A stretch of DNA of 54,169 nucleotides from an uncultured Succinivibrio sp. (GCA_905186145.1 LR994470.1:1117376-1171544); one strand, 5' to 3'; positions 44,605-47,600 are shown, counted from the stretch's first letter. The notes: generated from the sequence alone by a model not told the origin. Numbers and translations are program-made.

Positions 44605-47600
44605 TTAAAACTCATATCTATAACCAACTCTTAAAGATAAGTCCTTTCTATAGTTATTACCTGTTTCTCTATCAGCATTTACATAGAAACGCTGATGCTT
44701 GGCAAACTGCCAATCACCTTCAAGTCCGTAGGAGAAAGTAGTGCCGCCTAAATCAGCATCAAAACTGTAATTATCATTTAATGAAACAGTTTGCTCTCAT
44801 AAGAACTCATGGATAAAGCCCATACGTGCAGCAATTTGGAAATAACGCTTATCTAAATTATCAATATCACCGTAATTAAACTTCTTTCCAGCAACTACAC
44901 CGATGCGTCCAATTAATGATGAAACATTATCTTGACTTACATGCATATTAGTTGAGGTATCAAAGTCTTTACCATTGATAAAGTAGTATGCAATCTGAGC
45001 TTGAGGTTCAATGAAATAATGGTTATACCACATACGATCATCGACTTTCTCATCAAATGAGAACATATGACCAACCTCAGCAGATACACCCATACCAAAA
45101 GTATTGTAATCAGCTTTTACACTTCCTAATTTCTGATTATCAAGGCCGGTGATGTCTTGATCATATAATCCAGCACTTAAAACAAAATCTGCATAATTGC
45201 CGTTTTTAGCCATATAGCTTGCATAAAGCTTGGCACTATAAGCGTCAAGATCGCCTGAACCATTGTCTAAGGCAGAGAAATTGTTTTGATCAGAATGTGC
45301 AAATCTTAAAGAACCACCTAAAAGCCAAGAAGCATCTTCGGTATTTTGTATAAACTTATCGACACCAAAGTGAGCACCATAAGTCTCCATCTTAAAGCCT
45401 TGACCTGACAGTCCTGAAGCCTTTTCTTTGTCGTATATAGCCTTAGCCCAAACACCGCTTTGTGCACCGTAACGGATTTCACCTAAACGATGACGCAAAT
45501 CAGACAAATCAGCTCTCCAAGCTAAATACTGACCATAAGAGGTGCCGATATTCTTTATAGTATCAATTTCTTGATTTTGAGAATCATCAGATACTAAGAC
45601 TAAATGCCAATAGCCATTATTACCTGTTGCATTATTCTCTTTTCTAAATGACGGATCCTCAAGCTTTGATTGATCGTCAACAAACACTAACTTATAGGCA
45701 TAAGTTGCACCATTTGGACTTACTAAATCAGAGGCAAAGGTTAAATCAGATAAAGGCTTATCTTGATTGTTAGGATCACCATACTTAATTAAGAAATTCT
45801 CAGAATAAAGCTTAGGTGCGTTGATATCGGCATCAGTAATAGCAATATTTACCTTATAAGATCCCTTACTGTCTTCATTGATAACAAGCTGATCTAAAGC
45901 GGCATTATCTTTAGATTCGTTTTTAAGATCTACACGTAAATTTACTACACCACTATCACCGTCTAACACACTGCCATTTAAATTCTTGGCAATAACATGA
46001 TGGAAGTTTTTATTATCACCTTCATAAGCAATATTAATATTGCCACCATTTAAGGTAATAGTATCTAAGGATGAATTATCAGTAACATTCCAAACAGCAT
46101 CTTTAGCTAAATTTAAATTAACCGTGCCCTTGCCATTCAACTCTTTATTATTTAAAACATTCTTTTGAACATCAGAAAAGAGATTGTCATGACCTAAATC
46201 ATAGGCAAAGTTATCAATACTTCCAACTAAGACACTTTTCTCTTGCATGTCTAAAGAAATATTGCCTAAAGCTTTAGCATAAACATCTGTATAAGTGTTA
46301 CCTGTACCTGAGGTGTAATTAACACTACCACCATCACAAGATGCAATTCCTGAGAGAATATAAGTATCAAGACCTTCTTTATTATTGATAGTTATATCGC
46401 CATTTTTAGAGGCTAAGACACCAAAAGTATCGCCATCAATTGCAATATCGCCACCTTGTTTTGCGTTTAAAGTTACATAAGCTTTTTTGTCTTGAGCATT
46501 TCCTGCATATAGTCCTAAAGATACAGACTTATCACTCTTATCCTTAGCGCTAATATGAATATTTTGAGCCTCACCTACAAAACTGCCGCCATTTACCTTA
46601 AGACCATAAATGACTTCATTATCCTGACCTTGCTCTTTTGCTGAGGCAATAGTTAAAGTGTCATTGGCTTTAAAATTAACACTACCATCTTTTTGCTCTA
46701 AAGCTTGGATTATTGAAGCTTTGGAAGCAGTAGCTGTAACTTGAACATTTTCACCACTAAAGTTGGCCTTACCTATAGATCTCCAAGAGAGACCTTCAAT
46801 CTCAGATGCAGTACCAACAGCTGCGCCAATATTAATATTACCTAAAGCTTTTAAAGTAGCATCGGCATTGCCCTGACTTAAATATAATTGATCCCTACCT
46901 TCTTTATCTTGATAAGTATCACCTGAATTATTCGTATAAGCTTCAGTCTTTTCATCTGCAGACATTCCGCGAATAATGCCGGCTTCATTTTCAACTTTGG
47001 CTAACAAATTAATATCTTTATTAGCTTCAATATTAATAGAGCCATTTAAAAGCTCTACACCAACCGCATTATCATCTCCCCATACATTAGAAAAAGCACC
47101 TATTTTTTTATTGGCATTTTGGGCTTGTACGACAATATTGACGTTTTCGCCCTTAAAGTTTTGTATAACCTCTTTTTTATCTTTATCTTCTTTTTCTACA
47201 TCTAAAATAATGCCGGCTGTTTTAACCGTATTGTCTGCACCGTGAACATTTACATTAATATCTTTAGCAGCATCAAAATCAATTTTTACATTAGCTTTAC
47301 GGTTTAAATCACCCTGTATCCAGCTGTAATGTCTGGCTATAATCCCCATTACAGGAGATCTTGTAGATCCAGTACCATCAGCCTCAACTACAATATCAGA
47401 TGCTGACTTTACAATTAAAGATGTAGGAACATTAACATCAGGCTCATCAATAATTGTATGACCAGTTTCACCTTTATAAATCTGACCTACGTTTTTATTT
47501 TGCAAATCAATTGTAGCTATAAAATTATTAGCACCCTGTGCTTTCATAACTACACCCTTACCATTAGCATTATTGGCTTTAATATCTACGGTGCCATAAA

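Follow-up and report, generated by a model that had tools for sequence, protein, structure and literature searches.

Does an in-frame TGA near the end of a large and otherwise undamaged surface-protein gene mark a gene that has just been lost, a stop codon that is read through or switched, or a single base that was called wrongly? This question is raised by an autotransporter gene on the minus strand of a 54,169-nucleotide stretch of DNA from an uncultured Succinivibrio sp. (LR994470.1:1117376-1171544 of assembly GCA_905186145.1), which we refer to as the window and from whose first letter all positions are counted. Our findings say that the TGA does not signal recoding but marks either a fresh knock-out allele of an ordinary kind or an assembly error of one base, and we consider it probable that a real, very recent G-to-T change has created a null allele of a 1267-amino acid (aa) autotransporter.

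A complete barrel end lies behind the in-frame TGA

Under translation table 11, the open reading frame (ORF) of the autotransporter gene extends from 48417/48408 to 44797 on the minus strand, where it is terminated by TGA 44799..44797 and gives a product whose last residue is 1203 (...GFIHEFL). The minus strand around this stop reads ...ATG GGC TTT ATC CAT GAG TTC TTA TGA GAG CAA ACT GTT... and past the TGA the same frame remains open for 63 more codons (EQTVSLNDNYSF...LRVGYRYEF) before it ends on TAA 44607..44605; translated in frame, this post-stop tail reads EQTVSLNDNYSFDADLGGTTFSYGLEGDWQFAKHQRFYVNADRETGNNYRKDLSLRVGYRYEF. Neither a second stop nor a frameshift was found within the 3804 nt of the gene, and by our own estimate the chance of meeting 63 open codons at a GC content of 36.6% is about 1%. 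Since the profiles PF03797 (autotransporter β-domain; 3.5e-36, model positions 1-255 of 255) and TIGR01414 (6.8e-50) both align straight across the TGA, the tail is genuinely where the barrel domain ends, rather than a frame that happens to be open.

These data bear out what a first-pass annotation of the sequence had noticed, namely that the ORF ends in ...GFIHEFL with its frame continuing to a TAA (63 codons with a YRYEF end), that 3.8 kb of gene hold no other lesion (none over the full 3804 nt) and that the stop sits on the conserved glycine of an HEFxG motif, a residue at least 90% conserved in our alignment of 39 homologues. The terminator it had placed behind the tail is present as well, but at a spacing of about 10 nt rather than 12 nt. 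A single in-frame stop at a position where orthologues have a sense codon, with no further decay around it, is what would be expected of a young null allele.

The gene belongs to the type Va autotransporters

An AlphaFold2 model of the translocator unit (last 320 residues, stop read as Gly, alignment of 39 sequences) was obtained with a mean predicted local distance difference test score (pLDDT) of 84.7 and a predicted template modelling score (pTM) of 0.83, and it shows a helix at residues 11-25 followed by 12 membrane strands. Foldseek searches with this model returned EspP - including assembly intermediates of EspP with the β-barrel assembly machinery (BAM) - as well as BrkA, Hbp, AIDA-I and NalP with template modelling (TM) scores up to 0.79-0.90, and phmmer with the same 320 residues matched the BrkA barrel (3QQ2) at 1.3e-19 and also Vag8. 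The passenger model (pLDDT 86.3, pTM 0.89) is made up almost entirely of short strands that form a long β-helix, and its top Foldseek matches are pertactin, Hap, Ag43, UpaB and the stalk of IgA1 protease; at the sequence level, the passenger gave no Pfam or PDB match and no recognisable enzymatic domain.

Judged from these profiles and models, the gene is that of a classical (type Va) autotransporter whose passenger resembles those of adhesins. The β-domain, the 12-strand barrel with its linker helix and the signal peptide plus β-helix passenger are all there; the C-terminal aromatic β-signal is missing from the encoded product, its YRYEF lying 63 codons behind the stop. The window allele is a broken member of type Va and the intact allele described below (P0002) a full one. 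Cleavage of the signal peptide would be expected after SYA, and 'adhesin' is a label that the modelled fold of the passenger suggests.

With the solved type Va translocators BrkA (3QQ2), EspP (2QOM, 3SLJ; BAM-EspP 8BO2), Hbp (3AEH), AIDA-I (4MEE) and NalP (1UYN), the gene shares signal peptide, β-helical passenger, linker helix, 12-strand barrel and an aromatic terminal residue. Folds agree at TM scores of 0.7-0.9, yet identity is just about 23-26%, and unlike these proteins ours has a passenger without a sequence-detectable family and an encoded barrel that ends after strand 9. The passengers of pertactin (1DAB), Ag43 and UpaB (7KO9, 6BEA) are the top fold matches and have a long right-handed β-helix with no globular protease head in common with the model, although at about 11% identity the global TM scores stay low (0.15-0.30).

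The stop falls directly after barrel strand 9

In the 320-aa model the stop corresponds to residue 257, directly after the strand at 242-254 (strand 9), and leaves behind it a hairpin (258-272) and three strands (275-287, 292-303, 306-319). Counted along the whole protein, the stranded segment comprises the hairpin (residues 1205-1219), strands 10-12 (1222-1234, 1239-1250, 1253-1266) and the C-terminal YRYEF. The E, F and Q residues of HEFLGEQ are invariant in the alignment, ...EFLGEQ... is also what a sister-species orthologue (48% identity) and a paralogue carried by this genome have at the site, and a stop at the position of codon 1204 occurs in 0/38 aligned homologues.

In the assembly of outer-membrane proteins, the C-terminal aromatic β-signal is required for recognition by BAM, and the last strand pairs with the first to close the barrel. 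Going by the model, the encoded product should be null. In the course of events that we propose, a G-to-T transversion in one lineage would very recently have turned GGA (Gly1204) into TGA, and translation would now stop right after strand 9 to yield an exported 1203-aa product which, deprived of strands 10-12 and of the YRYEF β-signal, could neither be recognised by BAM nor close its barrel. The passenger would remain undisplayed, and the periplasmic product would presumably be degraded.

The TGA is private to this assembly

A protein search returned P0002 (1267 aa), which is identical to the read-through product of the window and has Gly at 1204. Its gene was seen on at least 23 contigs, which come from many samples and include contigs of 2.12 Mb and 2.05 Mb. 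The truncated 1203-aa product (P0126) is on record from one contig (2,038,865 bases, the length of this genome). Ten full copies of the gene differ from that of the window by only 1-2 positions in 3804 nt; the difference present in all ten is T/G at gene nt 3610, usually together with a synonymous site at nt 2481. The plus-strand base at 44799, an A in the window, is C in each of the other contigs that cover it (16/16), all of them near-identical and from other samples. The TGA is private to this assembly.

The first-pass annotation had named C as the alternative plus-strand base at this position and had put forward a comparison of strains, and its proposal of an autotransporter with no other damage that carries either a very recent nonsense mutation or a miscalled base agrees with what we see: the intact allele is common and a single base (GGA to TGA) away. 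Strains are virtually identical throughout the gene, so that the intact tail is uninformative on selection. Exact 35-mer scans of Joint Genome Institute (JGI) metagenome contigs for both the TGA and the GGA allele gave no match; the species is absent from that collection, which makes this result uninformative.

A recent mutation or a consensus error

To weigh a real mutation against an error, we counted private variants in the 42.3 kb of the window that are covered by at least three near-identical contigs. Nine are private to the window, eight substitutions and one intergenic homopolymer indel, and no private indel shifts or otherwise breaks the frame of any ORF in the compared sequence; by these counts the assembly looks clean. 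The substitutions comprise three intergenic, one synonymous, three missense and one nonsense change in covered sequence that is 88% coding, and the intergenic share fits selection-filtered variants better than random errors (P ~0.06, own calculation). By class, there are four G:C>T:A, two G:C>A:T, one A:T>C:G and one G:C>C:G. Since G:C>T:A makes up 4/8 of these private changes and 7/31 of the singletons of the other contigs, GGA>TGA belongs to a common natural class of the population.

G:C>T:A transversions are classically caused by loss of MutY. No bona fide mutY (TIGR01084, cut-off 286 bits) was found in the organism's own genome (G000) or in 15 congeners (G001-G015), the best matches to the model in the genus being Nth-like and scoring 54-82 bits; mutY is present at 367-430 bits in 9/9 genomes from other families of the order, and fpg is present in the own genome. 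Absence of mutY offers a mechanism by which G:C>T:A changes would be expected, and a genus-wide loss of MutY would favour both such changes and AT-richness.

Several points weigh against a real mutation and speak for a consensus artefact, that is, for an organism which has GGA, or TGA as a minor allele only, and for an intact gene that a miscall, a polishing error or a wrongly chosen allele has broken in the record. The TGA allele comes from this assembly alone among the public contigs examined and has no independent witness, and elsewhere the gene does not differ from the intact allele. From the outset, a nonsense change is to be expected more among random errors, which strike stop codons more often, than among variants that have survived selection. 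Transversions account for 6/8 of the window-private substitutions as against 13/31 of the other singletons, a lean that is not significant and is compatible with some artefacts, and the private homopolymer difference (49679, an intergenic T-run shorter by one base) is a typical residue of long-read assembly. Single-contig Succinatimonas genomes from nanopore metagenomes have been published (PMC8863827), with no link to this genome shown.

On the other hand, the private rate (9 in 42.3 kb) is comparable in magnitude to that of singletons in other contigs, private substitutions are enriched in intergenic DNA and, in this mutY-less lineage, G>T changes are naturally frequent. Moreover, no window ORF is frameshifted, unlike in an error-ridden contig of the same species (L106/L126). 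To our minds, a consensus artefact deserves to be taken seriously but is rather unlikely, and the base would seem to be real in the cells.

The contig just mentioned (L106/L126; ena:ERZ27273494 contig_3482_polypolish) carries the autotransporter gene in 3 or 4 pieces and was excluded: genes for UvrB, RNase T, DUF294 and others are split there too, and it looks like an under-polished long-read assembly that is unfit as evidence for a pseudogene. As for the missense changes private to the window, they are RNase T N115T (44195), DHDPS A210S (34071) and Na/Pi cotransporter A181T (19952).

A private single-base premature stop in a surface-protein gene is in itself routine, and annotation pipelines would flag a pseudogene. 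What our analysis offers in practice is a quality flag on one base of this genome.

UGA is a stop codon in this genome

The UvrB protein of the window shares 78-87% identity with its counterparts in Succinatimonas/Succinivibrio metagenome-assembled genomes from gut samples, and the genome, at 36.6% GC, forms one contig of 2.04 Mb. Table 11 leaves every window ORF of at least 100 aa open (48/48), and among 928 ORFs of at least 300 codons genome-wide, 723 end on TAA, 153 on TAG and 52 on TGA. The gene for release factor 2 (RF2), prfB, is present (495 bits, cut-off 370), and among 78 tRNAs called by ARAGORN in the whole genome there is neither a selenocysteine (Sec) tRNA nor a suppressor tRNA with a UCA anticodon. 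Genetic code 25, in which TGA would mean Gly, was rejected on the presence of RF2, on the genes that TGA terminates and on the finding that no other window gene needs TGA to be read; selenocysteine at UGA was rejected as there is no tRNA-Sec.

Programmed recoding may nonetheless be envisaged at this one site, with UGA decoded as Gly, Trp or Sec or left deliberately leaky so that some full-length surface protein is made, in small and controlled quantity. The intact tail and the rarity of TGA, the least used of the three stops (52/928 long ORFs), would be in line with this, and basal near-cognate read-through of UGA, which is general knowledge for bacteria, might supply traces of a Trp1204 protein. 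However, GGA stands at the site in 16/16 near-identical contigs and TGA is unconserved, and an intact tail needs no other explanation than that strains differ by just 1-2 nt over the whole gene. Against decoding further stand prfB with its score well beyond cut-off, the 52 long ORFs that TGA ends, the missing tRNAs and the lack of any other window gene in need of TGA decoding; at a conserved Gly position, Trp or Sec would also be a poor replacement. No feature suggestive of stimulated read-through was seen at the TGA. We regard recoding as highly improbable, and the earlier idea of read-through that gives rare display of the passenger finds no footing in a TGA that is private, in a genome with RF2 and without suppressor or Sec tRNA.

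ARAGORN also reported a tRNA-like gene of undetermined identity (G000 C1:1963946-1964021) with a two-letter anticodon '(at)', maybe an odd loop or a false call. When the genome was scanned for long ORFs with a second long open stretch behind them in frame, 193 pairs were obtained, mostly neighbouring genes of an operon with a common frame, and the scan was unusable as a pseudogene count.

Other disrupted alleles circulate in the population

The window allele is not the only one affected. In a second haplotype, seen on at least 23 contigs from several samples, the gene is split into 379- and 800-aa products, with a 238-bp miniature inverted-repeat transposable element (MITE) at L102:5643-5880 (also in L103-L105) that is flanked by a short target duplication. 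This MITE consists of the 52-bp and 186-bp ends of an insertion sequence (IS) of about 2.1 kb that has about 17 copies in G000; two full copies of the MITE lie in G000 as well (C1:248008 and 1947823). Two further insertions, both of ISL3 elements, lie 162 and 246 nt upstream of the ATG in two samples. The IS load of the 2.04-Mb genome is heavy, with 25 or more near-identical copies of each ISL3 type. No further IS or MITE polymorphism was found elsewhere in the compared window, with the limit that short-read contigs tend to end at IS.

The strains in circulation among hosts include some whose copy is disrupted. Because these show that loss is tolerated, a real nonsense allele would not be surprising, and loss of the autotransporter may well be tolerated or favoured in the gut. 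The clustering of insertions at the autotransporter locus is only suggestive, given contigs that end at IS and at least 25 ISL3 copies. If pushed further, at least four independent hits (TGA, MITE, two ISL3) in a population that is about 99.9% identical could reflect recurrent selection for loss or down-regulation of the autotransporter, for instance as a phage receptor or immunoglobulin A (IgA) target, in a 'VANISH'-type species of the human gut for which genus-wide MutY loss and expanded ISL3 would provide the raw material; we consider this doubtful. Were it true, the autotransporter would become a candidate target of phage or host-immune selection in Succinivibrionaceae, and the pattern would be linked to the apparent genus-wide absence of mutY. 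Either way, the locus is a pointer to a seemingly repeatedly disrupted gene in a poorly studied gut lineage tied to non-industrial lifestyles.

Could the nonsense allele then be one state of an adaptive ON/OFF switch, a reversible and selected change of a surface antigen as the first-pass annotation had suggested? Several independent lesions and insertions at one locus of a 99.9%-identical population would fit such a scheme, and surface autotransporters are generally known as classic targets of phage and antibody selection. A regular-expression scan of 44560-48720 found, however, no unit of 2-7 nt in four or more copies and, as its longest runs, T8 in the terminator and A7 at 47109, which is not what repeat-based phase variation calls for; gene and upstream region are without simple-sequence repeat or long homopolymer, and no invertible element was seen. 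To revert, the codon would need one specific and rare A:T>C:G change, a point mutation with nothing unusual about it and of a class that makes up 2/31 of the singletons of other contigs. Precise loss of an inserted MITE or IS is too infrequent to be of use for switching, and the ISL3 insertions upstream of the gene are maybe neutral, given at least 25 copies of each and AT-rich intergenic DNA as their usual target. A switch of this kind seems very unlikely to us.

Phase-variable autotransporters are known from Neisseria (NalP and AutA, through homopolymer slippage) and E. coli (Ag43, through Dam/OxyR). What our locus shares with them is the presence of ON and OFF forms within one species; unlike them, it has no slippery tract and shows no sign of reversibility or of a regulatory methylation switch. 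Autotransporter pseudogenes that arose by nonsense mutation or IS insertion are known as well: ydbA and yaiT of E. coli K-12 are IS-interrupted, and others are found in Yersinia pestis and Bordetella pertussis. As in these, a large surface-protein gene is lost by a single small lesion with intact alleles in sister strains, and the MITE-split allele is the direct counterpart of IS-split ydbA and yaiT. In contrast to these pseudogenes, the TGA allele comes without a second defect, is seen in one assembly only and may not be real.

Coordinates of the locus and further observations

The features of the locus are collected in Table 1. The sigma-70-like match listed there is the sole one upstream of the autotransporter gene.

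Table 1. Features of the autotransporter locus, with positions in the window and strand.
Feature	Position	Strand	Remarks
Whole autotransporter gene, read through the stop	44605..48408	-	1267 codons + TAA, 3804 nt
Likely start ATG	48408	-	MYKISC...; AGGA 10 nt upstream
Alternative start ATG	48336	-	MRSKRS...
Putative signal peptide MRSKRSLACVPIMAAALISNVSYA	48265..48336	-	Identified by eye from the sequence
Passenger domain	45568..48264	-	~900 aa; all-β, pertactin/Ag43-like β-helix (predicted)
Translocator unit	44608..45567	-	Residues 948-1267; linker α-helix, then 12-stranded β-barrel
In-frame TGA (codon 1204)	44797..44799	-	GGA (Gly) in 16/16 other contigs covering the site
63 codons stranded behind the stop	44608..44796	-	Identical to the P0002 tail
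Intrinsic terminator	44565..44594	-	13-bp stem, then T-run; ~10 nt past TAA
Sigma-70-like promoter match	48587..48615	-	Weak, 9/12 positions, consensus match only
Second window-private substitution	48455	-	47 nt upstream of ATG; 14/14 other contigs differ
MITE insertion site in other haplotype	47304..47314	-	Gene nt ~1095-1105; MITE absent from window
ISL3 target site, 8-bp duplication TAAATTTA	48570..48577	-	1431-bp element, L013:1401-2831; empty in window
ISL3 target site, 8-bp duplication TTTTTAAT	48654..48661	-	Different 1430-bp element, L015:1318-2747; empty in window

Two observations lie outside the gene itself. A paralogue from a sister species (L003; G002:C15:105640-107469, minus strand) has an in-frame TAG in its barrel (...IEPQAQIGYYYL*GDDF...), with the rest of the barrel open behind it. 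Elsewhere in the window, a prophage insertion polymorphism is found at about 8715, downstream of fabF (8992-10239), with the prophage absent from the window, L111, L117 and L118 and present in L110 and L112-L115, where it encodes a CI-like repressor, ERF, YqaJ and RusA.

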